Made by a program: the position numbers and the translations under genes
Notes under the pieces: generated by a model
Seen by the model: the letters and a program-made list of their open reading frames with translations, nothing else
Database searches by the model: none
What the model was told of the DNA's origin: nothing
Origin: Escherichia phage vB_EcoM_3HA11
Reading direction: 5' to 3' (one strand)
Length of the DNA: 64,000 nt
Sequence record: MN342150
In this document: piece by piece, positions 43,053-55,291 of the stretch
Layout of the letters: each line of letters begins with the position of its first letter
Numbering within the stretch: the first letter of the stretch is position 1

Positions 43053-44021
43053 TTAGAAGCTGTCGCCTTCGGTATCAAAGCGGCCTTTGTGCAACGGTTC
43101 CAGTTCGATAAATGTCATATCAATCTGGGTTGACACGATGCTGTCATCTTTGTGGACAGCATATGAAGAATCCGGCGTCTCGTTGACAAACATGTTTGAC
43201 AAAACACAAGTCGATATCCGATGCAACCATTTGTTGCGTTCCCCCTGCACCATGAACGTGATGTCAAATGTGGAAGGGTGTAGATAGAATGCACTGGAAT
43301 TCTTGTTGTATTTGTATTCGGGGTACATATGCATCTTGAACAGACGAATGATTTCCCTCACCATTTTCGCCTCTTTTTGCGATCTTGGAGTGAATTTGAA
43401 TGTGAACGGGATTTCTCGGTTGCGCACCCCTTGGAAAATCATTTCCACATACGGGTTGGTCATCGTACCTGTAAACAATTCTAATGTATCATGAGCATTA
43501 ATTGTCGGCAAGAAAGGAATTGCTTCCGAAGCAGATTGGATGGCCTTTGTCGCCGCAAATCTCCCCATTTCTTTCCCAACATTCAAAGCATCCCCAAGTT
43601 TGAATTGACTCATATCTTGGGCGGCGCGTGATAAGAATTGGGCACCCATACCTGCTAATCCCAACTCGGAGCCGTTCCAGCCAACGCCATAGTTGGTTGT
43701 AATGGATTCGGGCATACACAACACGATTGATTCGTTAGAGCGGACGTGACGCGCCCAAGCATATTTGCTAATAGAACCCGATTTAGAACCATAAACCACA
43801 GGAGTCTTACCCAATGGATTTTGTATCGGATTTTCGACGGTTTGGGTTGTGGTGTCCCCATATGAAGAACCGGATATTCGGTTGATGTTGAATAGAACAT
43901 AATGGCCGAGGGTTTTACCCCCTGTTATGTCTAATGGATAGACCAATTGCTTCTGAGACTTGGCCAAGCCTTTTGTGTTCAGAACTTTGATCTTATCGAT
44001 GGTCGACTTGAAATTCGCCAT
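43053..44021 (-). CDS. baseplate/tail-tube junction protein (gp48/gp54-like, putative)
   Basis: 322 aa, first gene of the hub operon. Confidence 0.45.
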   Translation of the reverse strand: MANFKSTIDKIKVLNTKGLAKSQKQLVYPLDITGGKTLGHYVLFNINRISGSSYGDTTTQTVENPIQNPLGKTPVVYGSKSGSISKYAWARHVRSNESIVLCMPESITTNYGVGWNGSELGLAGMGAQFLSRAAQDMSQFKLGDALNVGKEMGRFAATKAIQSASEAIPFLPTINAHDTLELFTGTMTNPYVEMIFQGVRNREIPFTFKFTPRSQKEAKMVREIIRLFKMHMYPEYKYNKNSSAFYLHPSTFDITFMVQGERNKWLHRISTCVLSNMFVNETPDSSYAVHKDDSIVSTQIDMTFIELEPLHKGRFDTEGDSF

Positions 44022-44074
44022 GGTCTGAAGCCCTTTAATTAGAATAGAGTGATGACACTATTTAGGACTAGAAT

Positions 44075-44695
44075 ATGGCTATGTATTTGCAGGGGAAGTA
44101 TGTTCCCGTAAATCCCAAGAAATATAAAGGCGACGTGAACAAAATAGTATTTCGTTCTTCGCTAGAACTTGTCGCCTTTAAATTTTGTGATATGAATCCT
44201 GCTATCGTCTATTGGTCTTCAGAAGAAACTGTAATCCCTTACATATCTCCGGTTGATGGTCGCGCCCATCGTTATTTCATGGATTTGAAGGTTTGGACTC
44301 GTCGGCAGGATTCCGATGAATTACAAATTACTCTTATTGAAATAAAACCCAAAGACCAGATTAAAGAACCTCGCAAAACTAAAACGATGAAGGAATCAAC
44401 ATTCAATAATTCAATGCGCACTTGGTTGGTAAATCAGGCAAAGTGGACAGCAACTAAAGAACATTGCGCGAAGGTAGGTTGGAAATTCATTATCTGGACA
44501 GAAGAACATTTGGTGCCAGGTGAAGACCCAGAAGTTAAAAAACAATTTGCTCTTCGTTCTAAGAAAAAGCGCGAAGTCGAAATGGAAGATCGACGCCGCG
44601 CTCAAAGGATTAATGCGTTGAAAGAGCAAATGAAGAAGGAAACTGCTAATAAACAACCAACGCAATTGAAAGATGATGGTTTGTTATTACCCTGA
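44075..44695 (+). CDS. PD-(D/E)xK-like protein (possibly head-completion-type nuclease fold) with basic C-terminal tail
   Basis: YFMDLKV ... LIEIKPK resembles the D...E-x-K core. Confidence 0.4.
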   Translation: MAMYLQGKYVPVNPKKYKGDVNKIVFRSSLELVAFKFCDMNPAIVYWSSEETVIPYISPVDGRAHRYFMDLKVWTRRQDSDELQITLIEIKPKDQIKEPRKTKTMKESTFNNSMRTWLVNQAKWTATKEHCAKVGWKFIIWTEEHLVPGEDPEVKKQFALRSKKKREVEMEDRRRAQRINALKEQMKKETANKQPTQLKDDGLLLP

Positions 44696-44905
44696 TTTCC
44701 TTGGATGTCCAGGGGCAAAGCAAGTTTGTTTGTCCCTGCATATCATCCACCCATCAGCACGGGCTTGTCTAGCACAGTCTCCCCAAGATTCACCAGCATA
44801 AGACTTCATCCCACATCTGGGGTGATGCTCTTGCCAAGCCCAATCACAAGATTTGCATTCCACACATTCACAATACAAATCTATCGTGTATCCTGCGGTA
44901 ATCAT
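44687..44905 (-). CDS. small Cys-rich protein
   Basis: 9 Cys in 72 aa (CECVECKSC, CRDKQTC). Confidence 0.35.
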   Translation of the reverse strand: MITAGYTIDLYCECVECKSCDWAWQEHHPRCGMKSYAGESWGDCARQARADGWMICRDKQTCFAPGHPRKSG

Positions 44906-45313
44906 TTAATCCGCCAGGCGTTCGTAAATTTTTTGACGGAACTCATTCCCTTTTGCACAACCTGTGGCCAGCAAACGAGTACCGCCTGTCCCGATGACAC
45001 TGATAGTTGAAAATCTTAAAATACGGCCTGTAATGGACTGATCCACTTTGATGGTCTCAACTTTACCCAGGCGAAGTTCATCAGCATCACGGCGGATAAA
45101 TCCTCGTTTTACGATAACCCGTTTGTTGGTGACTGCGAATTCCGTGGTCATCACATTCAAGATAGTTGGGATCAGGAATAACAAACTGAAACCAAATGTT
45201 GGAATAATCGTTAAAGCGACGAGAACATAAATCCAGAATCCACTCCACCAAGTCGGACGAGTGAATGCAACCACATATTCATTTTCGCTCAGCATACGAT
45301 CGACGTAACGCAT
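44906..45313 (-). CDS. membrane protein with bacterial PH-like domain (YdbT/DUF304-like)
   Basis: Two N-terminal TM helices followed by a PH-like beta region. Confidence 0.45.
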   Translation of the reverse strand: MRYVDRMLSENEYVVAFTRPTWWSGFWIYVLVALTIIPTFGFSLLFLIPTILNVMTTEFAVTNKRVIVKRGFIRRDADELRLGKVETIKVDQSITGRILRFSTISVIGTGGTRLLATGCAKGNEFRQKIYERLAD

Positions 45314-45314
45314 T

Positions 45315-45836
45315 TTAATTCCTTACTTTGTCAGGATTAGATAATATTTGTTCGTATCCGACTTCTCCTTGATAGTCGAAAACATGCTGAAGAATCGCCA
45401 TATCGTCTACCATCCGATAAACTTCAATTCCAGCGTTCATCAATTTTTTGATTCCATCCATAATACGATATGGCTCACGATAATATACTTTATCGATTTT
45501 ACCGCTATCTATTATCTTTTGAGTGCAATTAGGGCAAGGACTATGTGTCACAAACATAACCAACCCTGTGAAATCATCTGCATTTTCGGGGATACGCATT
45601 AGAGCATTTTCCTCCGCATGAACAACACACGGGTTTGTAACAATTTGCCCGTGTTGCTCCATCTCACAAACATTCGGCATGCCAGGAGGCGTTCCGTTCC
45701 ATCCGATAGCCACAGGCTGATCAGTTTCAGGGTTTACGATAACACAACCGACTTGCAGACGCCGAGCATAACTGGTTACACCATATGCTGCAGCTGATCG
45801 CATATGAGCAAACATCATACGTGGTTTGATAGCCAT
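45315..45836 (-). CDS. cd: dCMP deaminase
   Basis: Zinc-binding motifs VHAEENA and SPCPNC. Confidence 0.8.
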   Translation of the reverse strand: MAIKPRMMFAHMRSAAAYGVTSYARRLQVGCVIVNPETDQPVAIGWNGTPPGMPNVCEMEQHGQIVTNPCVVHAEENALMRIPENADDFTGLVMFVTHSPCPNCTQKIIDSGKIDKVYYREPYRIMDGIKKLMNAGIEVYRMVDDMAILQHVFDYQGEVGYEQILSNPDKVRN

Positions 45837-46153
45837 TATTTTATCAGAGCCTTTTCAAGTAAAAAGATCATGTCATCCTGGTCGGCGCGGCCAAAGATCT
45901 GACCGAGGGACACCATGGAATGAACCTCTTTGACAATCAGGTCTTTGCCTGTTACACCGCTGTTGTCCAATTCGAGAATTGTAGACATGCGCTCAACCAT
46001 ATGAGGTGGATGATTGATATAACGTTGAAGATACTTTTCACGCAACGCAATTTTTTCGATAAGATCTGACATTTCTGCATTCTCTTCTGAATACAGACGT
46101 TCTTTAGATTTCAGTTCTTCGAGGCGTTCGTACATTTCTTTTAATGAAATCAT
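45836..46153 (-). CDS. hypothetical protein
   Basis: ATG at 46153 with SD GGGAGAG. Confidence 0.4.
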   Translation of the reverse strand: MISLKEMYERLEELKSKERLYSEENAEMSDLIEKIALREKYLQRYINHPPHMVERMSTILELDNSGVTGKDLIVKEVHSMVSLGQIFGRADQDDMIFLLEKALIK

Positions 46154-46215
46154 GTTTATCTCTCCCAATAAATTAAGGGGAAGTATACCTTCCCCTTCTT
46201 CAATAAAATAAATTA

Positions 46216-46566
46216 TTATTCAGTACAAGCTCGACCAAGTTCAGTCAGGCGGTAGAATGTTACTTCTGATTTCGGCCAATGCTTATACTCTTCAGAGTCA
46301 TCATGAACCATTGTAAACGCAGGTTCGATCAGACCTTTAGATAATAATGATTGCCCTGAACGTGTATCCCACGGATCACCTTTTACAGAACGAAACCCAC
46401 CAGCAATCGGAGGGGTATGGAATGTCCATACTGTCTTGCCCTTTTCATTCGTCCAAGACTTCGGATTGAAATACCAATGACAAAGGCGTCTGGCTTCACC
46501 CTTTTCAAAATTTAACATTCCTAAAAGGACGCAGAGTTGATGTCCTGTGATTCTTGGCTTTTTCAT
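46216..46566 (-). CDS. hypothetical protein
   Basis: ORF. Confidence 0.4.
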   Translation of the reverse strand: MKKPRITGHQLCVLLGMLNFEKGEARRLCHWYFNPKSWTNEKGKTVWTFHTPPIAGGFRSVKGDPWDTRSGQSLLSKGLIEPAFTMVHDDSEEYKHWPKSEVTFYRLTELGRACTE

Positions 46567-46895
46567 AAGATCCCCAAGTCAGTAAGGTAACGATAAGACA
46601 GGACTACAGATAGAAATCCAATTAACGCCCAAGACGACAGAATAGGCTTGCAATTTAGCGTAGTCTTTCCATTGGGTATGTTGGGACTTCCAGTAATAAC
46701 AACCGAATCCGTTTCAGCTCTCAGTGTCATGACAGAACCCATGAGAATGATTGGGCGCACATAATATCCTTCATTATTGCGCTTTACGATACATGGTGAA
46801 GAAAATCGCAGGAACGGATCACCGCTTTTATAACCGAATAACTCGACCTTTTCTATTTCTTCGGGTACTTTCTGACCAGGAAAGAATATTTTCAT
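46563..46895 (-). CDS. hypothetical protein
   Basis: ORF, ATGA overlaps with neighbours. Confidence 0.4.
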
Positions 46896-47470
46896 AATGC
46901 AATTCCTAAATTTGTGTATAACAACTCAGCCAGGGTGACAGGACGCTTGAATTGTTCCCAACTGCAGTTCAGGTATTCGCGCTCTTCGCGAATATTTTCG
47001 TGAAGATGGCCATGGATATTATACGCCCAACGGTCTAATTGATAAGGAACATGTGTTGTCAACACACGGCCAACAGGCGTGTCACGTTCGTACATAGCGC
47101 CGAAGGAGCTAATCCAGCCGTCCATATACAAAGACAACAGCATCTTAAAGCTGTCGTGGTTGCCCTGTGCCACCCTGATGATAAAGTTCGGACGCCAGTC
47201 ATCGGGGACGGGGCGTCGCTTAAACTCATCAATGTTTCGCTTGGCACCCTCCCGCATCAGGCGAATGAACCCTTCAGCCCCGATGAAGCATATATCACCA
47301 GCCAGTTCAAGGACGTCCCGAGACTTCAGCCCCTGGAAGATCGTGTCGATAACCGCAGCGTCATGCGCTTCCTGTGTATCAAATCCACGCGGTTTAAAGA
47401 CCTTCTTATGCCCAAGGTGAGTGTCACCAAGGTACTTTACGATTCCCGCCATTATGGTTTCCTCAGCCAT
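46892..47470 (-). CDS. calcineurin-like metallophosphoesterase
   Basis: Motifs GDTHLG, GNHD and GHLH. Confidence 0.6.
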
Positions 47471-47793
47471 TCTAAAATTGGTACGTTCACAAACCCTTTG
47501 TGCCAGCGGTGTGGGTTGTGGCCTCTGTTATGATCTAGTAAGCACGTATCGGGAGGAACACTGAAGTGAATGCCTTCGATGTCATAATAATTCCCATCAA
47601 TCAGGGTGTATACATGACCTTCAATCTGGCTATAATGGATCTCTGCTTGGGGATACACATGCTTCAGAACCAGAGCAACCTGATAGCACTTTCCGTTCTT
47701 CCCGATATACTCGACATCGACCTGTTGTGGGAACACGTCTTTGATAAGATTTATCAATCTCGTGATATCATTTACAACAACCGAACGTTTCAT
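47452..47793 (-). CDS. hypothetical protein
   Basis: ORF. Confidence 0.4.
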
Positions 47794-47795
47794 CT

Positions 47796-48458
47796 CTATG
47801 ATAACTCATGGCGGTGTCGAACACACGCAGGGCAATTACAATTCTTTTTCAAAATTGGCATTTCACACCATGTCATTAAGTCATGTATTGGGGACATGTG
47901 ATGATAGAACCAAGATTTCTTGAGACTAATCAATGGATATAAAATTTCAATAGGTCTTTCCCCGTCTCTGGTCATCATGTTGTACCCTTCAATGACTTTA
48001 TTAAAAGCGGGTATCCAGTGTATTGCGTCATCGCCGTTAACATATGCCAATATATACGTGGACGGCAAGCCCCTGCCTTTAAATTGCGTGTTTAATAACC
48101 ATATCGGGGCTTGTGCTAAACAAGCGCGAAAACCACCGTCAGGGACGTTGATGCCACTGATAGGTTCTTGATGATGTGTCCAACGATACATAAGAAGTGG
48201 GGCATTTTTATTAATCCAGTTGTGAATTTTATTCCTCGCCCAATTTTCGCGTTTAGATTTGCATTTATTATTTTCGAGGTGGCAATACACAGTATGAACT
48301 GAATATCCTTTCGATAACAACCAAATCAACATGTATGTGCTATCCACCCCACCAGACCAGAACAACGTCACTTCTTGATTATTCTCCGGCAATGGAGCAT
48401 CCCCTTGAAGAACACGGTATACAAAATCACAATCAGATATTGAGACAACAATTTCCAT
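47796..48458 (-). CDS. queC: QueC-like PP-loop ATPase (7-cyano-7-deazaguanine synthase family, putative)
   Basis: PP-loop SGGVDST near the N-terminus and a C-terminal Cys cluster C-x8-C-N-C-P-A-C as in QueC zinc sites; 220 aa. Confidence 0.55.
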   Translation of the reverse strand: MEIVVSISDCDFVYRVLQGDAPLPENNQEVTLFWSGGVDSTYMLIWLLSKGYSVHTVYCHLENNKCKSKRENWARNKIHNWINKNAPLLMYRWTHHQEPISGINVPDGGFRACLAQAPIWLLNTQFKGRGLPSTYILAYVNGDDAIHWIPAFNKVIEGYNMMTRDGERPIEILYPLISLKKSWFYHHMSPIHDLMTWCEMPILKKNCNCPACVRHRHELS

Positions 48459-48534
48459 TAAAATATTCCTCTTAAAGAATCATTTGTTGTGCGCCATAAA
48501 GATATGATGGTGCAATGATAATACATTATACAAA

Positions 48535-48560
48535 TAGAAAAGCCCCTTTCGGGGCTTATT
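48535..48560 (-). terminator. rho-independent terminator on minus strand (AGCCCCGAAAGGGGCT plus T run)
   Basis: Hairpin just downstream of the 48556..48846 gene. Confidence 0.5.
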
Positions 48561-48846
48561 TGTCTTCAGATTCATACAAACGCCAATTGCCGATGCTAAA
48601 CCATTCCCCTACATTATTTGAATATCTGGTTGTTCGGACTCCTCCGACTTCATACGCCCATTTGAAGAATTTCCATTTGGACGATAAAGAAGGACATTCG
48701 CTTCCGGATTTCAGAGAACACGCTGTGAGCCAACGCGTAATACTGAGAGCCTGAAAAATCGGATGGATAAATGAAGAATACAATATCCAAAGCGTTATGA
48801 CAACAAAAATAATGGTCGTGATCACCCCGACAATTTGAAAGAACAT
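48556..48846 (-). CDS. small membrane protein (N-terminal TM helix)
   Basis: SD GGAGG before ATG; hydrophobic IVGVITTIIFVVITLWILY. Confidence 0.4.
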   Translation of the reverse strand: MFFQIVGVITTIIFVVITLWILYSSFIHPIFQALSITRWLTACSLKSGSECPSLSSKWKFFKWAYEVGGVRTTRYSNNVGEWFSIGNWRLYESEDK

Positions 48847-48922
48847 TTAAGAACCTCCAAAATATTGAACACTGACTATGAAGAAAACCATGATTGTAAA
48901 CAACCATGAAACAAGGAAAGAT

Positions 48923-49555
48923 TCATCCTTCCACCTTCAGTCCCATCAGGTCTTCCATGGTTTTCTGAATGCGTAACCAATCAAGCGCCGCATCATAACG
49001 AGGATCATGATAGACCATACCTTCCAGTTCCCACGCCTTGATACCAGCATATCGATCTTGCTGCCCAACACCCTTCAGCCAGCTTACGATGTCAAATGTG
49101 TGGTGATAGTCCCAAGGTTCGTTGGAATCTTGCTTACACGTCACCTCAATGATGTGCTGAGCCTTGCGTAGGTCAAACAGATTCCTATCACACCAGTCAA
49201 CCGAGCGTGGGTCGATCCCAAGGCGATGGCACCCCTTGCGAATTTCATCGGCCAATTCGAAAATAGAAATATCCTTGTCGGTCGGATATAGACTGATAGC
49301 TCGGGCGGCGTCGCACGGGTTGCGTTTACCTGTACCCAGCCACCATTCCACAGTACCCTGGTCTTTCACACGGCCAAGTTCAATCTGTTCTTTGACATTC
49401 AGTTTGATAAATGTCGTGCGCTCTTCAACAAGCTGCTGAAGAGTATAACGCTTTGTCAGGTCGGCGATAGTCTGTGCCCAAGACAACATGACAGCATCAT
49501 CCCAACGACCGAGAGTTTCGCTATCAGCGACGGCCAAGAAATTAGATTTATACAT
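48923..49555 (-). CDS. dexA: DnaQ-like 3'-5' exonuclease (T4 DexA-like)
   Basis: Exo I motif VADSETLG (compare T4 DexA IDFETMG) and a C-terminal H..D motif. Confidence 0.55.
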   Translation of the reverse strand: MYKSNFLAVADSETLGRWDDAVMLSWAQTIADLTKRYTLQQLVEERTTFIKLNVKEQIELGRVKDQGTVEWWLGTGKRNPCDAARAISLYPTDKDISIFELADEIRKGCHRLGIDPRSVDWCDRNLFDLRKAQHIIEVTCKQDSNEPWDYHHTFDIVSWLKGVGQQDRYAGIKAWELEGMVYHDPRYDAALDWLRIQKTMEDLMGLKVEG

Positions 49556-49892
49556 CAGTTTCCCCTGCTTTCTCTAAAAGGAGTTTCAAAGGATATGTCC
49601 CACAAGCGGTGGCATACTCGACTTTGAAATATGAATTATCGTTCATGGCGAAATTTCGATGTGGGAAATATTCCCCGTCATCCAACCCGCCTAATCCCCC
49701 GCCGACGCGATATTGTTTCAACTCAACTTCGCCGCCATAACGGAGTTGGGCATATAGGCCGATAGGAGCGCGAACGTAATTCTCCAGCCATACCCAATTT
49801 CCATCGTGTAAACGTGTAGGGATAAATGCAAAACGCACCTTGGGATGAAGAACGGCTTTGGCGAGCATCTCTTCTGTTATTTCACGTTTCAT
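49548..49892 (-). CDS. hypothetical protein
   Basis: ORF. Confidence 0.4.
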   Translation of the reverse strand: MKREITEEMLAKAVLHPKVRFAFIPTRLHDGNWVWLENYVRAPIGLYAQLRYGGEVELKQYRVGGGLGGLDDGEYFPHRNFAMNDNSYFKVEYATACGTYPLKLLLEKAGETDV

Positions 49893-50509
49893 CCAATACC
49901 TTCCTCTTCGATAATATCTTCTTCACTAGCGACGACAGAGATTCCGTAGTCTACCATCTGGGAAAGTTCTTGTAAATCTTGTTCAAACCCGTCACCCTGT
50001 CGGATATAAAAGACGGGTACGACACGACGCCTGGTATCTTCGAAGATAGTCTCCGCGATTTTATTAATCTGGCTCACTACATGAAACAGTTTCAAACCAC
50101 CGATACCACAGCCGATGGCGGGTAAACCGACATAGACTGTTTCGTCGGTTTTTGCCTCAATGATATCGTGAACTTGTTCAAACATAATCTGAACTGAACT
50201 GATAATGGAAGGCATGCGTGCGTTAGGACCAGGATAGAACTGAGTGTACAAATTGAATCCCCAGACACCCGTGTCATGATCAAACGCATAGGACATGTTC
50301 CCCAAACGTTGTTCCGGACCACGTTCATCTAATTGGTCGGCTCGGTAAATTTCTGGGAAATCCAATCGAACATGGTTGGCGATACCTGCGCCCATCACAG
50401 ACCAACAATTTGCGCCATGAGCAAAGGCATTGATGAGATTGAAACTCGTGGCAGCTTTCAGTAAATCGCCGTTTGTGATAACATATGTGGTCATGCGTAA
50501 CGTCTCCAT
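49889..50509 (-). CDS. macro-domain protein (putative ADP-ribose binding/hydrolase)
   Basis: NAFAHGAN...MGAGIA and LPAIGCGIGG resemble the macro-domain NAAN...GGGV and PAI(S/G)TG signatures. Confidence 0.5.
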   Translation of the reverse strand: METLRMTTYVITNGDLLKAATSFNLINAFAHGANCWSVMGAGIANHVRLDFPEIYRADQLDERGPEQRLGNMSYAFDHDTGVWGFNLYTQFYPGPNARMPSIISSVQIMFEQVHDIIEAKTDETVYVGLPAIGCGIGGLKLFHVVSQINKIAETIFEDTRRRVVPVFYIRQGDGFEQDLQELSQMVDYGISVVASEEDIIEEEGIG

Positions 50510-50727
50510 TGTATAATTTCGTTGTTGACACAGCTAACCTGGATGATACACATATTCTGGCGATGGTCAGTGAGTGTCATAATAAAACTGTCTGGTTGTG
50601 ACATGACACGATTAACAGATATCCCGCGCGACATCAAACGAACACAGATTTCTTGATACAAACGTTGCATGTATCCTGAAACAGAAGCCGATTCATACAC
50701 ACGTTCAAATTCATATAAGTCGTTCAT
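50491..50727 (-). CDS. hypothetical small protein
   Basis: ORF. Confidence 0.35.
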   Translation of the reverse strand: MNDLYEFERVYESASVSGYMQRLYQEICVRLMSRGISVNRVMSQPDSFIMTLTDHRQNMCIIQVSCVNNEIIQWRRYA

Positions 50728-50948
50728 TTGTTCAGACCATTAATAGCATTTTCAGAGATGTATTCGACAAATTGATTGTCAGCCGCCATTTTTAAAAGTT
50801 CAAATAATTCCGTTCCGACGGTACTCCCGAACATTCCTTCCAATACGCCTTGGACATCTTCATCTATTTCTTCGATGATGAGTCCATAAGATTTCAGGCG
50901 GCGCGAAATAGCACGGAACTGGGCGATATCACCAATTTCATTTGCCAT
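50724..50948 (-). CDS. hypothetical small acidic protein
   Basis: ORF. Confidence 0.4.
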   Translation of the reverse strand: MANEIGDIAQFRAISRRLKSYGLIIEEIDEDVQGVLEGMFGSTVGTELFELLKMAADNQFVEYISENAINGLNK

Positions 50949-50996
50949 GTTATTGTCTCATTATGGGATTAGGCGGCAATTATACCGCCAATTTAT

Positions 50997-51410
50997 TCAA
51001 TAGAGGTCTTCGGAAAAGAGTTCACGGAAAGGAGTGTTCTTCAAACGAACTTGATTAGTTTGTCCGGCTTCACGGGCGACCACAGCGGCCTCTTCACGGG
51101 ACATCCATTGCCCATAGTTATCAATAAAACCTTGTTCACGAGTGTGAGTGGTTTCGATAATACCTGCTTCTTTCAATCGTTTGAGTTGCGCGTTCATCAA
51201 TTTGTCGTGATGTCGAGCGCTTACAACGATCACATCACCATATTTGTTGGCAGCAGCCACAACACGCCGATCAAACTTGGTTGGGTCAGGTATATCACGA
51301 GCATACAAGGCGATGTGAGTGTCGTCCACGTCCCCTTTCACTTCAGAGTATAACTGACACCCATTAGGAGATCCAGTAGGTAAAGAACGAAAATATCCAA
51401 GTAATTTCAT
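50997..51410 (-). CDS. hypothetical protein
   Basis: ORF. Confidence 0.4.
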   Translation of the reverse strand: MKLLGYFRSLPTGSPNGCQLYSEVKGDVDDTHIALYARDIPDPTKFDRRVVAAANKYGDVIVVSARHHDKLMNAQLKRLKEAGIIETTHTREQGFIDNYGQWMSREEAAVVAREAGQTNQVRLKNTPFRELFSEDLY

Positions 51411-51413
51411 AAT

Positions 51414-51725
51414 CTAATCTATCCATATTTCAGGTTCAGGAATATCGACCATCTCCACGGTTTGATTCTTTAATTCGTGGAAACAATCTCCAAGGAATTG
51501 TAATTTACCATCTGTCAAAAATAAATGGCAACGGCTATTTGGATCAGAATGATTCACCAACAGACTAGGAGTGAAAGTCGGTGATTCGAGATCGTGATTC
51601 CATTGCCATATTGGGCCAGGCATTTGCCCTGAAATGCGATAAGGATGAAGCATATTACAACCAGGACAATGAAAATATATGGAACCACCCATTGACAATA
51701 ATTTTGAAGTCAGCAACTTTGACAT
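51414..51725 (-). CDS. hypothetical Cys/His-containing protein
   Basis: ATG at 51725 with SD GGAGG; CPGC...H motif. Confidence 0.4.
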   Translation of the reverse strand: MSKLLTSKLLSMGGSIYFHCPGCNMLHPYRISGQMPGPIWQWNHDLESPTFTPSLLVNHSDPNSRCHLFLTDGKLQFLGDCFHELKNQTVEMVDIPEPEIWID

Positions 51726-51726
51726 A

Positions 51727-52005
51727 TTACGCCTCCACTTCTTCATCAGGAAAATAAGGGCGTAAATCCCCAATTAATTTAGGGAAGAGGGCAAACCCGA
51801 ACAGATTAAAAGAACGCATGGTCCCAACCATACCAACATCATCCAATTCGGTAACGTCAGAAAGGGCACACAACGGTATCCACACGTCTTCTTGTCCTTC
51901 GTAATTTACGAAGGCAACTTCCTCTTTGATGAATCGAGGACACAGAATATCAAACAGCCAATAGACGTATGCCAGCAATGAGAGACTGCGGAAATATACA
52001 AACAT
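51727..52005 (-). CDS. hypothetical protein
   Basis: ATG at 52005 with SD GAGGGG, downstream of a hairpin that follows gp52. Confidence 0.35.
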   Translation of the reverse strand: MFVYFRSLSLLAYVYWLFDILCPRFIKEEVAFVNYEGQEDVWIPLCALSDVTELDDVGMVGTMRSFNLFGFALFPKLIGDLRPYFPDEEVEA

Positions 52006-52047
52006 GGTGAACCCCTCACAGGTTTGGAGGGAATTCACCCTCCAGAT

Positions 52048-53379
52048 TTATAGGCTTAATACCTTTTCAAGATCATCTAAATCATCATTGTAGAGATCAA
52101 TGTCTTGTTTGTTATTTAATTCTTCTCTTTGTTCTTCCAGATTCTTTATCTGATTCAACAATCGTTCACGTGCGTCTAACGTGATTGATGATAAAGACAT
52201 CTTGAATAATTCATCAAGATCACCATCAAAATCCGGATAATCCGTTTGAAACAACGCTTTCAGTTCTGTAATGCTGCGACGCATATCCGTAACCACAGCC
52301 CAACTGATGAATAATGCACGGTTGTTCAGGCGATGAATTTTATCAGTCATCTCCTTTAACAGGTATTGACGACGGTCTTCATAACGGATCAAACGATAGT
52401 TGAAGAAGGAAAGCAGCATCTCCTTCCACCCAGAATAACGTCGGATGACACCATCTTCATCCCATGCCGTCCAGACGGGTTTGTTCGCAGAGTACAGTTT
52501 GAACATCTGCTCGATTTGTGCATCATCCAGCTTAGACAATTCACCACGTTTGAACACGACAGTAATGTCCCAGCCGTCTTCGGTCGTGTCATTGGCGTAT
52601 TCAGTGAGCAAACCCGCCTTATACAACGGCAACAGAACTTTGGTCTCATACGATTTAGCGAACCAACCAATTGGGACCTCGGTGATGTGAAGGGTTGTAG
52701 CATTGATGCGTTTGAAGATGCCGCGACTGTATGCTCTTCCTTCCTCAGTATAGCCTGTCTCTCCTTTATATCCATTCCAGTACGGTTTTAAGTCCGTAGG
52801 GTCTTCGCCACGGAGAAGTGCTCTCAGAGCGCCGAGGACTGATTTAACGCAATGGCATGGGGTGTCCGTTGAGTACCCAGATCCGATACCATTAATTCCG
52901 TTCACCAAGAACATGGGAATAACAGGCAAAAAGAACTTTGGTTCCAATTGTTCTTCACCCAAGTAGTTGTAATCCAAAATCCCCTCATCTTCCTTACGGA
53001 ATATTTTACGGATAACATCGGATACAGAAACAGAGATGTAACGAGCAGACGATGCATCACGTCCCATGATAGAACCAAATTGACCATCACGGTCAAAGTA
53101 TGGAATATTGTTCGTACCAGGAAACGCCTGAGCCATGTTCACAATCGTATTGCCCATGTTCTCACCACCGGACTTGTAGTTGGTACGAGCGGCGGCGAAC
53201 ATACCCAGACGATCAACAATCTCTTCCTTGCCATATTCTAATGCAGTGAAAAGAATTTTGCGCTGACTTGGTTTCAAACTGTCAATCAACTGAGGTATTT
53301 GACGGATGCTGTTGAACACAGAAAATGCCTTGTGATCATTATTGACATAATCCGTGACATTGATACTTTGAGCGACCAT
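52048..53379 (-). CDS. 52: DNA topoisomerase II medium subunit (GyrA-like, T4 gp52)
   Basis: Blocks IDSLKPSQR, IPYFDRDGQFGS and HITEVP match T4 gp52; ATG at 53379 (SD GAGGGAG) one base after the gp39 stop. Confidence 0.88.
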   Translation of the reverse strand: MVAQSINVTDYVNNDHKAFSVFNSIRQIPQLIDSLKPSQRKILFTALEYGKEEIVDRLGMFAAARTNYKSGGENMGNTIVNMAQAFPGTNNIPYFDRDGQFGSIMGRDASSARYISVSVSDVIRKIFRKEDEGILDYNYLGEEQLEPKFFLPVIPMFLVNGINGIGSGYSTDTPCHCVKSVLGALRALLRGEDPTDLKPYWNGYKGETGYTEEGRAYSRGIFKRINATTLHITEVPIGWFAKSYETKVLLPLYKAGLLTEYANDTTEDGWDITVVFKRGELSKLDDAQIEQMFKLYSANKPVWTAWDEDGVIRRYSGWKEMLLSFFNYRLIRYEDRRQYLLKEMTDKIHRLNNRALFISWAVVTDMRRSITELKALFQTDYPDFDGDLDELFKMSLSSITLDARERLLNQIKNLEEQREELNNKQDIDLYNDDLDDLEKVLSL

Positions 53380-53380
53380 C

Positions 53381-55291
53381 TTATTCTCCCTCTGTTTCAA
53401 ACAAACAAACATCACTAAACCAGGTTTTGCGGTAATCGGAGGCCTCATCACCGAAGCCGTTCTTCAGTGATTCTTTGTAGTTGTCATCCAACGTGACCGT
53501 CGTAGTATACGCATCCAGATTGTTTAGAATACGTTTGAAGTCTTCAGTGCTGTTACCACCAAGACCTTTCAGATATTTCTTCTTCGTAATCTTCTTGGCG
53601 TCAGGGGTTTTTAAAAATTCTTCATATTCCGTATTGCTCATAAACTCATACATCGTTTTACCACACCAAATACGCATGTATGGTGTGCGCAGGAGTTTCA
53701 GCCTACCCTGACGGACGTACTCCGGCCAATATGTGCAATACAGGGTAATCAACAAACCACGGATGTGAATGCCATCATCGTCCGCATCGGTGGCTACAAC
53801 AGTCTGTGGATAGCGGGTGATATCAATCGGCTGACCTGGGACTGCGCCTCCATGAATCGTGCAAAGATTCTTGAACTCCTCATTATTCATTACCTTTGAT
53901 CGCGGATTGTTTAAACAATTGATGAATTTACCACGCAAAGGGAATAATCCGATCTTTTTAGTATCACGGGCGTTCAGGATAGGATTGGACGCGCTGTCAC
54001 CTTCAGTCAATAACAGAGAGCACCCACTGCGATCACCACGGGCGGTCGCCGGATAATACTTCTCTATCTCACGATAATCCCGTTTGCTAATATCCTTCTT
54101 GGCCTTTTCAAATTCAGCATCATCTTGGTCGTTACGCAAGGCGGCCAATTCTTTGCTCAGGCCAGCTGTGACAAACTCCAGAGCCTTCCGGATTAGTTTA
54201 TCGCTGGGTTTATAGGTCGTACCAAACTGACTAACAGGAGTCGTCATGCGCTCCTTGGTTTGGCTATCAAAGCGTGGATTGTTGATATCCGCCGAGATGA
54301 AAAGCATCATATGGTTTTTAATCATAGAAGGCTTCAGATCAGTCTTAAACTTTTTCACCAATTGTGGGCGAATCGCATTCACGATCTGGTCAGCAACGTA
54401 ATCCACATGAGGACCACCGATATGGGTGGCAATGCTGTTCACATATGATGCATGAATAAACGCCCCCTGCGAAGGAGCAACAGCGACAGACCACTCCTCT
54501 GTTTCATCAACAGAAGAACCTTGGCAAAAGTAATCCACAAAATGGCCAAAGCGGTCGATACGGATTTGTTTCCCGTTCAGAATGACTTTCAGGCGCGGGT
54601 TACAAGCAGCCACTTCAAATGCTCGGCGATAGATCATCAACAAGTTATTTTGATCAAGACCTTTGACACCCAGACGCGCATAATCAGGTATCCATGCGAT
54701 AGACGTCCCAGGGGCATTCAAATTACTGATCACCGGATTAGAACGTTTGCTCAAATTGTCTTCAAATGTTTGAGTGTAAGACTTCTTCCCGTCATTTGTC
54801 GTGACACGGAACCATTTTGAAAATACGTTGACCAGTGAAGCCCCTTCACCGTTCTGACCACCTGATTTTTTGTTATTGTATTCTTCATCGTCGTCGTTGA
54901 AGTTGCTACCCGCATAGAGGGAGCCAAATAACATTTCAGGGAGCCATTCTTTGGTCTCCCCGTGTTTAACAACCGGAATACCCCCATTGTCAGCCACGAT
55001 GATCTGACCATTCATAGGAGAAACGGTAATGGTGATTTCTGTGAGGCTTTTACCTTCTGGCGTTTTGCTATGATCTACAGAGTTGGTGATAATTTCATCA
55101 AACTGTTTAATCAATGCAGGAGAATATTCAAAATTATCCTTGAATATAACTTGATCTTTTATTGGATCATATATCCAAGTTGTTCCAACGGATGAACGGA
55201 TACTGCCCAGATGACGCTCTGGGCGAAGAAGGATATGCTCTATGTGAGTGAGCTTTTTGTATTTTCGTTCAATATCAATCATATTAGACAT
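53381..55291 (-). CDS. 39: DNA topoisomerase II large subunit (GyrB-like ATPase plus Toprim, T4 gp39 with gp60 portion fused)
   Basis: GHKL block LIKQFDEIITNSVD, RFDSQTKERMTTP and Toprim LLLTEGDSA match T4 gp39; 636 aa. Confidence 0.9.
   Translation of the reverse strand: MSNMIDIERKYKKLTHIEHILLRPERHLGSIRSSVGTTWIYDPIKDQVIFKDNFEYSPALIKQFDEIITNSVDHSKTPEGKSLTEITITVSPMNGQIIVADNGGIPVVKHGETKEWLPEMLFGSLYAGSNFNDDDEEYNNKKSGGQNGEGASLVNVFSKWFRVTTNDGKKSYTQTFEDNLSKRSNPVISNLNAPGTSIAWIPDYARLGVKGLDQNNLLMIYRRAFEVAACNPRLKVILNGKQIRIDRFGHFVDYFCQGSSVDETEEWSVAVAPSQGAFIHASYVNSIATHIGGPHVDYVADQIVNAIRPQLVKKFKTDLKPSMIKNHMMLFISADINNPRFDSQTKERMTTPVSQFGTTYKPSDKLIRKALEFVTAGLSKELAALRNDQDDAEFEKAKKDISKRDYREIEKYYPATARGDRSGCSLLLTEGDSASNPILNARDTKKIGLFPLRGKFINCLNNPRSKVMNNEEFKNLCTIHGGAVPGQPIDITRYPQTVVATDADDDGIHIRGLLITLYCTYWPEYVRQGRLKLLRTPYMRIWCGKTMYEFMSNTEYEEFLKTPDAKKITKKKYLKGLGGNSTEDFKRILNNLDAYTTTVTLDDNYKESLKNGFGDEASDYRKTWFSDVCLFETEGE

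Follow-up and report, generated by a model that had tools for sequence, protein, structure and literature searches.

ViI-like phages have T4-type core genes in common but are not strictly T4-like. The genes cd, dexA and tk.4 of T4 are pre-late genes. QueC-family protein deazaguanylation is used by the type IV cyclic-oligonucleotide-based antiphage signalling system (CBASS; Cap9) and by QatABCD immunity. Knockout of T4 tk.4 sensitised the phage to DarTG2 and the gene was renamed adfM (preprint 10.1101/2025.11.20.689424), and a chimallivirus macrodomain, AdfM, strips DarT2-made ADP-ribose from DNA (PMC13309987). Here we describe a block of 18 small minus-strand genes (44687-52005) in a 64,000-nucleotide stretch, referred to as the window, of Escherichia phage vB_EcoM_3HA11 (MN342150). 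A preliminary description of the window had assigned the block to a T4-like phage, which is not correct in the strict sense, as the phage is a Kuttervirus (Ackermannviridae, Cvivirinae; ViI-like). The block is likely a vertically inherited auxiliary block of the Ackermannviridae that remains stable within the genus and shows slow change from one genus to another, with dispensable central genes, pre-late expression and an AdfM-like macrodomain gene.

Sequence comparisons showed that the block is already known, as about 180 deposited Kuttervirus genomes contain it in annotated form. Over its full length it is 94-98% nucleotide-identical to the blocks of SeSz-1, bering and vB_SenM_UTK0005. Matches were found in 249 phage records, of which 161 are colinear over at least 80% of the 8.1-kb query, mostly at 94-98% identity. 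A tblastn search with the 18 proteins concatenated identified 182 records that encode at least 80% of the query, 174 of these at an identity of at least 90%. The G+C content of the block (43.5%, vs. 44.7% for the window, with all genes within 39-50%) is native and gives no sign of recent import.

The 18 open reading frames (ORFs) form an unbroken chain on the minus strand, each of 72-220 codons, with a coding share of 96%. Thirteen of the 17 gene junctions abut or overlap by 1-8 nt, leaving only four gaps of 48-97 nt. All 18 ORFs match PHROG families (E from 3e-26 to 6e-80) and ten match Pfam families. The PHROG matches, together with the intactness of the ORFs in other genera, indicate that the ORFs are genuine genes and did not arise by chance. 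On the left the block is flanked by the genes of the tail-tube cap gp48 (43053-44021) and the head completion protein gp4 (44075-44695, plus strand), and on the right by those of the medium and large subunits of topoisomerase II (52048-55291). These core-module flanks were seen in every genus examined. The analysis thus agrees with the preliminary description in the number of genes (about 18 small minus-strand genes claimed, 18 counted), their dense and mostly overlapping arrangement, their location between conserved core modules and the scarcity of recognisable functions, a confident enzymatic assignment being possible for five of the 18. The calls of a dCMP deaminase, a metallophosphoesterase, a QueC-like protein, an exonuclease (DexA) and a macrodomain protein are upheld, as are those of Cys-rich proteins (the 72-amino-acid (aa) ORF and DUF6527) and membrane proteins (bPH_2, phrog_2531, phrog_2241 and the C-terminus of DUF7618). 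The extent given earlier, 44687-51773, is right at its left end only: the DUF6527 ORF had been over-extended to a TTG, the ATG of this gene being at 51725, and the last gene (51727-52005) had been left out. The features of the block are as follows.

44687-44905, minus strand: 72-aa Cys-rich protein with eight Cys (phrog_926, E=2.9e-26).
44906-45313, minus strand: membrane-flanked bacterial PH domain protein, bPH_2 (PF03703, E=1.2e-12; phrog_3707, E=4e-74).
45315-45836, minus strand: dCMP deaminase, T4 Cd-like, 173 aa (PF00383, dCMP_cyt_deam_1, 63.9 bits; phrog_174, E=4e-64).
45836-46153, minus strand: 105-aa protein (phrog_4059, E=1e-57), with the start ATG at 46153 as annotated in bering.
46175-46197, minus strand: terminator-like GC-rich hairpin with a T-rich tail, located in the 62 nt that separate the gene at 46216 from the gene at 46153.
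46216-46566, minus strand: 116-aa protein (phrog_4677, E=8e-65).
46563-46895, minus strand: DUF7618 protein with a hydrophobic C-terminal segment (PF24594, E=3e-54).
46892-47470, minus strand: calcineurin-type metallophosphoesterase (phrog_547, E=9e-44), likely start ATG at 47452.
47452-47793, minus strand: YunG-like protein (PF24591, E=9e-44).
47796-48458, minus strand: QueC-superfamily PP-loop ATPase of the phrog_1550 clade, with SGGVDS and a four-Cys cluster.
48540-48557, no strand assigned: strong bidirectional terminator hairpin (GCCCCGAAAGGGGC plus a T-run) in a 97-nt gap, followed by a minus-strand TATAAT box.
48556-48846, minus strand: 96-aa membrane protein (phrog_2531, E=3e-38).
48923-49555, minus strand: DexA-type exonuclease (phrog_255, E=1.5e-54), annotated as DexA in relatives.
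49548-49892, minus strand: 114-aa protein (phrog_5613, E=1e-70).
49889-50509, minus strand: orphan DarG/TARG1-type macrodomain, homologue of T4 Tk.4 (AdfM), likely start ATG at 50494.
50491-50727, minus strand: DUF7234 protein, 78 aa, fast-evolving (PF23881, E=1e-38).
50724-50948, minus strand: 74-aa acidic protein (phrog_5924, E=1e-50).
50997-51410, minus strand: p839, an 'Arn.3-like', widespread phage domain (phrog_839).
51414-51725, minus strand: DUF6527 Cys-containing protein, 103 aa (PF20137, E=1.9e-13).
51727-52005, minus strand: 92-aa membrane protein, the last gene of the block (phrog_2241, E=6e-38; gp158 of bering).

The preliminary description had placed the block among hyperplastic regions, and a true hyperplastic or anti-defence island in the T4 sense, i.e., a recombination hotspot with rapid turnover of small genes and mostly host-specific counter-defence genes, is the best surviving alternative, although an unlikely one. 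The position between core modules is as expected for such an island, and among genera the slot varies from 2.2 to 9.9 kb in length, with 7-17 of the 18 genes in common. Some inserts are genus-specific, such as the four genes that Agtrevirus EspM4VN has in addition and, in phiEa2809, an adhesin gene and a fragment of HsdR. However, EspM4VN keeps 17 of the 18 genes in order, AV101 keeps 15 and Taipeivirus keeps 15-16, so that Agtrevirus and Taipeivirus share 15-17 genes, and their order, with the window. The slot and the gene order extend to Nezavisimistyvirus and Miltonvirus, in which a skeleton of the bPH, dCMP deaminase, QueC-like, DexA, macrodomain and p839 genes is found; beyond this skeleton, the phosphoesterase gene is present in Miltonvirus 3M only and p5613 and p2241 in part. 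Across genera the same skeleton recurs, usually with the QueC-like gene, which is missing from AV101 and Limestonevirus, and the small ORFs vary. The p5924 gene is absent from allotria, EspM4VN and AV101. The fastest-diverging genes across genera are those of DUF7234 (30-51% identity), the phrog_2531 membrane protein (38-59%) and the Cys-rich ORF (44-72%).

Mosaic identity also fits a recombination hotspot. The phosphoesterase, YunG-like and DexA proteins are 90-95% aa-identical to those of Agtrevirus, whereas the products of adjacent genes are about 60% identical (38-73% vs. EspM4VN and AV101). The pattern (46892-47793 and 48923-49555 compared with EspM4VN, locus L004, and AV101, locus L014) points to genes having been exchanged among genera and suggests recent recombination between subfamilies. 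The phosphoesterase is 93% identical in Agtrevirus and only 51% in Taipeivirus. DexA is the best-conserved protein of the block, with 90-95% identity in Agtrevirus and Taipeivirus and 72-74% in Nezavisimistyvirus and Miltonvirus.

Within the genus, the size classes of the Kutterviruses arise from three discrete insertions, none of which is carried by the window: a 741-bp HNH homing endonuclease gene between gp48 and gp4, a 372-bp ORF that separates the gene at 46216 from that at 46563, and a 297-bp ORF (EP75 ORF23) in the 97-nt gap 48458-48556, with ORF28.1 and ORF23 being optional genes of EP75 and SenM-2. In allotria the DUF7234 gene is replaced by a 50%-identical allele and the next gene, p5924, is missing. 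The two optional small ORFs and the replacement and deletion in allotria are the only within-genus differences seen inside the block, and are of the kind that a hyperplastic region would produce. Against such a region stand the more than 160 colinear genomes, the native G+C content, the ordinary metabolic enzymes among the members and the nearby homing endonucleases, whose insertion site, between gp48 and gp4, is not part of the block. The comparison of variable ORFs thus shows that the small ORFs vary between genera and that the content is near fixed within Kuttervirus. The hyperplastic character claimed earlier fails within the genus and holds in part between genera; the accompanying claim that the block collects anti-defense genes is supported for one gene, the homologue of the validated T4 Tk.4/AdfM.

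Two junctions in the flanks were compared as well. The gap between gp48 and gp4 (44021-44075) is 53 nt in the window and is filled by an HNH/homing endonuclease gene of ~741 bp in many Kutterviruses, among them EP75, SenM-2, selz and PhiSH19, and in Dickeya Limestoneviruses; the shortness of the gap identifies the window as an endonuclease-free allele. The medium and large topoisomerase II genes abut in the window (53376-53381), and an ORF lies between them in bering (399 bp, gp160), AV101 (447 bp) and Limestonevirus XF4 (573 bp). The junction is another site of an optional small insert in a core module.

Two independent deletions recorded in databases bear on the need for the block. Limestonevirus XF4 lacks the equivalent of 46405-51555, comprising 12 genes including those of DexA, the phosphoesterase, the QueC-like protein and the macrodomain protein. 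At the junction, an N-terminal piece of DUF6527 and the C-terminal half of the 46216 gene remain, and the missing genes were not found elsewhere in the XF4 genome. The edge remnants and the absence of copies elsewhere indicate a secondary loss of the 12 genes in one deletion. The laboratory genome-reduced mutant selz_8t2 (OL964747) of Kuttervirus selz lacks the equivalent of 45890-50334, comprising ten or eleven genes. The CiPGr paper describes 'genes 107-117' as lost in a large fragment in viable selz mutants (PMC9825161). Both deletions spare the Cys-rich ORF and the bPH and dCMP deaminase genes. The central 10-12 genes are dispensable for lytic growth as judged from these records, in agreement with the accessory character proposed for the block. 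The preliminary description had held that gene-for-gene conservation in distant relatives together with known housekeeping roles would speak against such a character; such conservation was found in part, in close relatives and sister genera, and housekeeping roles were not found.

The macrodomain gene encodes a protein of 206 aa, or probably of 201 aa from the ATG at 50494. The protein matches DarG profiles (NCBIfam, E=2.5e-9; PADLOC, E=2.8e-10) in the macrodomain part only, and its best sequence matches in the PDB are DarG macrodomains. An AlphaFold2 model built from 36 homologues has a predicted local distance difference test score (pLDDT) of 95.9. The top Foldseek matches of the model are TARG1, the DarG macrodomains of T. 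aquaticus and M. tuberculosis, and Poa1p (E ~1e-8, target-normalised template-modelling (TM) scores of 0.75-0.80). Comparison with Tk.4 of RB14, a T-even orthologue of the T4 protein, showed 37% identity over 112 aa (E=2e-18), with the motifs AHGxNC, NLYTQFxPGPN and PxIGxGIG in common. The glycine-rich ADP-ribose-binding loops, MGAGIA and IGCGIGG, show little or no variation among the 36 homologues. In the phage family, to which T-even Tk.4 belongs, NLYTQFxPGPN takes the place of the DarG Lys motif, suggesting that its chemistry may differ from that of DarG. Judged by the alignments, the missing Lys separates the phage family from DarG, not from T4 AdfM. Together with the findings on the T4 and chimallivirus proteins, the profile matches, fold and homology make the gene very probably an orphan-antitoxin counter-defence gene. 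In a PADLOC scan of ten block proteins, nothing matched besides DarG and QueC.

The QueC-like protein has an invariant PP-loop, S35-G-G-V-D-S40, and four conserved Cys, C198-x8-C207-x-C209-x2-C212, one spacing of which is shorter than in the C(x)8CxxCxxC zinc motif of QueC (window protein and 18 close homologues, n=19). The canonical QueC motifs YxQxHxxE, VPxRN and YPDC, as defined in PMC13329287, are absent from this 19-sequence alignment. The phrog_1550 clade has motifs of its own, NNxxKxxRE and YVNGDDA. When 1.84 billion representatives were searched with a profile of the protein, 474 clusters matched at E<=1e-10; in a sample alignment of the window protein with 41 of the 474 matches, all 42 sequences match phrog_1550 and 41 weakly match PF06508. 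Only the N-terminal 30-60 residues are scored by QueC models. Membership in phrog_1550 and the weak PF06508 matches place the protein in a phage-specific clade of the QueC superfamily. A canonical QueC in a 7-deazaguanine pathway was rejected, since the substrate and catalytic motifs are lacking, and earlier surveys left out such lone QueC matches for the same reason (PMC6884629). Neither the block nor its syntenic counterparts in other genera, to which the scan was limited, contain a queD, queE, folE or dpdA gene. As the ATP site and the putative zinc site are kept and all substrate motifs are replaced, the protein could interfere with or mimic the QueC-family deazaguanylation of CBASS Cap9 and QatABCD. 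A new kind of counter-defence activity of the QueC-like ATPase or of p839 is nevertheless quite doubtful.

The dCMP deaminase exceeds the Pfam cutoff clearly (63.9 bits vs. 25) and carries the HAE (VVHAEENA) and PCxxC (SPCPNC) motifs. The enzyme is ~312 aa long in Nezavisimistyvirus (L007 16565-17506) and Miltonvirus (L008 15133-16068), compared with 173 aa in Kuttervirus, and the nearly doubled length indicates an extra domain. Five calcineurin-type metal-binding motifs can be read in the phosphoesterase (GDTHLGH, AGDICF, GNHD, THVP and HGHLH); it has no Pfam Metallophos match at E<=0.01 and no sequence match in the PDB. The 72-aa Cys-rich protein is shared by Kuttervirus, Agtrevirus, Limestonevirus and Taipeivirus, with identities of 44-97%. 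Homologues with 35-46% identity also occur in Shiga toxin (Stx)-converting lambdoid phages and a Klebsiella siphophage, the Stx1-phage homologue being located between exo/bet and int, within the early-left accessory region of lambdoid phages. DUF7618 was seen only in Kuttervirus and Aglimvirinae. In a BFVD search, the core of p839 matched only uncharacterised proteins from many unrelated phages and, weakly, domains within phage 'large polyvalent' proteins. A hydrolase label is not supported. No solved structural relative of p839 was found.

Hairpins with T-runs occupy three of the four gaps (46197-46175, 48540-48557 and 48932-48888), and a TATAAT box follows the second on the minus strand. This arrangement suggests four or five co-directional units. 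The T4-type late promoter motif TATAAATA is absent from both strands of 40-57 kb. A sigma-70 consensus scan gave 35 sites where 25 +/- 5 were expected, none of them convincingly placed, and no promoter is proposed other than the TATAAT box past the 48.55-kb terminator. An Rfam scan of 43900-52200 at E<=1 gave no match, and the window contains no tRNAs.

Nine plus-strand ORFs were considered as genes and rejected. Eight have no family. The ninth (48560-48754), antisense to the gene of the phrog_2531 membrane protein, matches the tiny family phrog_38818 (E=3e-48) but is broken by in-frame stops in Agtrevirus and Taipeivirus, where the antisense phrog_2531 gene is intact. To judge from these stops, phrog_38818 seems to have been assembled from antisense ORFs annotated in error. 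An alternative minus-frame ORF (48650-48907) matches no family and was rejected as well.

Together, these observations suggest how the auxiliary block may work. Its genes would form several co-directional units bounded by the hairpins at about 46.19, 48.55 and 48.9 kb, which by analogy with cd, dexA and tk.4 of T4 are probably expressed before the late genes. One group of products would assist nucleotide and DNA metabolism, namely the dCMP deaminase (supplying dUMP), DexA, the metallophosphoesterase and the divergent QueC-family ATPase. A second group would comprise host-interaction or counter-defence proteins, the clearest candidate being the orphan DarG-type macrodomain, which most likely clears phage DNA of the ADP-ribose added by DarT2. 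The dozen genes at the centre would be unneeded on a permissive host and kept by selection in nature, and the left end, with the Cys-rich ORF and the bPH and dCMP deaminase genes, would be the most stable part. Change between genera would proceed slowly, by gain or loss of single genes and exchange of alleles, rather than by the fast turnover of a hyperplastic region.

Several points weigh against this reading. Eleven of the 18 genes have no functional evidence. In the alignment, Gly/Pro of the macrodomain protein stand opposite the catalytic Lys of DarG, which is K80 in the Thermus aquaticus protein (YPGPNA vs. FPTKKHW of DarG). The macrodomain gene is annotated as two coding sequences in bering (gp152/gp153, L001 8891-9491), which implies that it is not always maintained; the split is a frameshift or a sequencing error, and the window, EP75, SenM-2 and allotria have the gene intact. 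Dispensability was shown for selz, a relative, on a single laboratory host and not for the present genome. No expression or transcriptome data for Kuttervirus were found in the literature searched, and we infer the timing and the operon structure. Finally, it is very improbable that the block is a housekeeping nucleotide-metabolism operon needed for modified phage DNA, in which the small ORFs would encode subunits or regulators: the presence of the dCMP deaminase and bPH genes in all 11 natural Ackermannviridae loci examined, their retention in both deletions, the conservation of DexA, which exceeds that of the flanking gp4, and the adjoining topoisomerase genes would fit such an operon, but Limestonevirus lives without 12 of the genes, a viable laboratory mutant lacks ten or eleven, AV101 lacks the QueC-like gene and T4 Tk.4 is needed only when DarTG2 is present.

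As an auxiliary block, the locus is of value as a compact and experimentally tractable list of candidates, not as a new kind of element. Kutterviruses are widely used in the biocontrol of Salmonella and E. coli O157, and the deletable central genes offer room for payloads. One gene, that of the macrodomain, probably decides growth on DarTG2-carrying hosts. The QueC-like ATPase, p839 and DexA are conserved and under clear selection.

Compared with the gp4-topoisomerase II interval of other Kutterviruses (SeSz-1, bering, vB_SenM_UTK0005 and Escherichia phage CBA120), the window has the same genes, order and flanks. It represents a minimal version without ORF28.1, ORF23 and the gp48-gp4 homing endonuclease, and its macrodomain gene is intact, whereas that of bering is split. 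Like T4 Tk.4/AdfM and the chimallivirus AdfM, the macrodomain protein is a phage-encoded orphan macrodomain of the DarG/TARG1 clade with the same fold and without a DarT-binding domain. Unlike T-even Tk.4 (155 aa), it is ~45 residues longer at the C-terminus (206 or 201 aa), where the model shows additional strand-helix elements, and in contrast to T4 AdfM its anti-DarTG2 role is predicted by homology. The QueC-like protein resembles canonical QueC (PF06508 cluster 1) in its SGGxDS PP-loop, its C-terminal four-Cys motif after a conserved CE, apart from one shorter spacing, and its length of ~220 aa; it differs in the replacement of the substrate and catalytic motifs and in belonging to a phage-only clade, phrog_1550. 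The block as a whole resembles the hyperplastic regions of T4 (Straboviridae) in consisting of small, dense, co-directional, mostly uncharacterised and dispensable genes between core modules, and in containing homologues of the T4 early genes cd, dexA and tk.4 and an arn.3-like gene. Unlike those regions, it has a nearly constant gene content within the genus, keeps most of its synteny in sister genera and shows no compositional anomaly.

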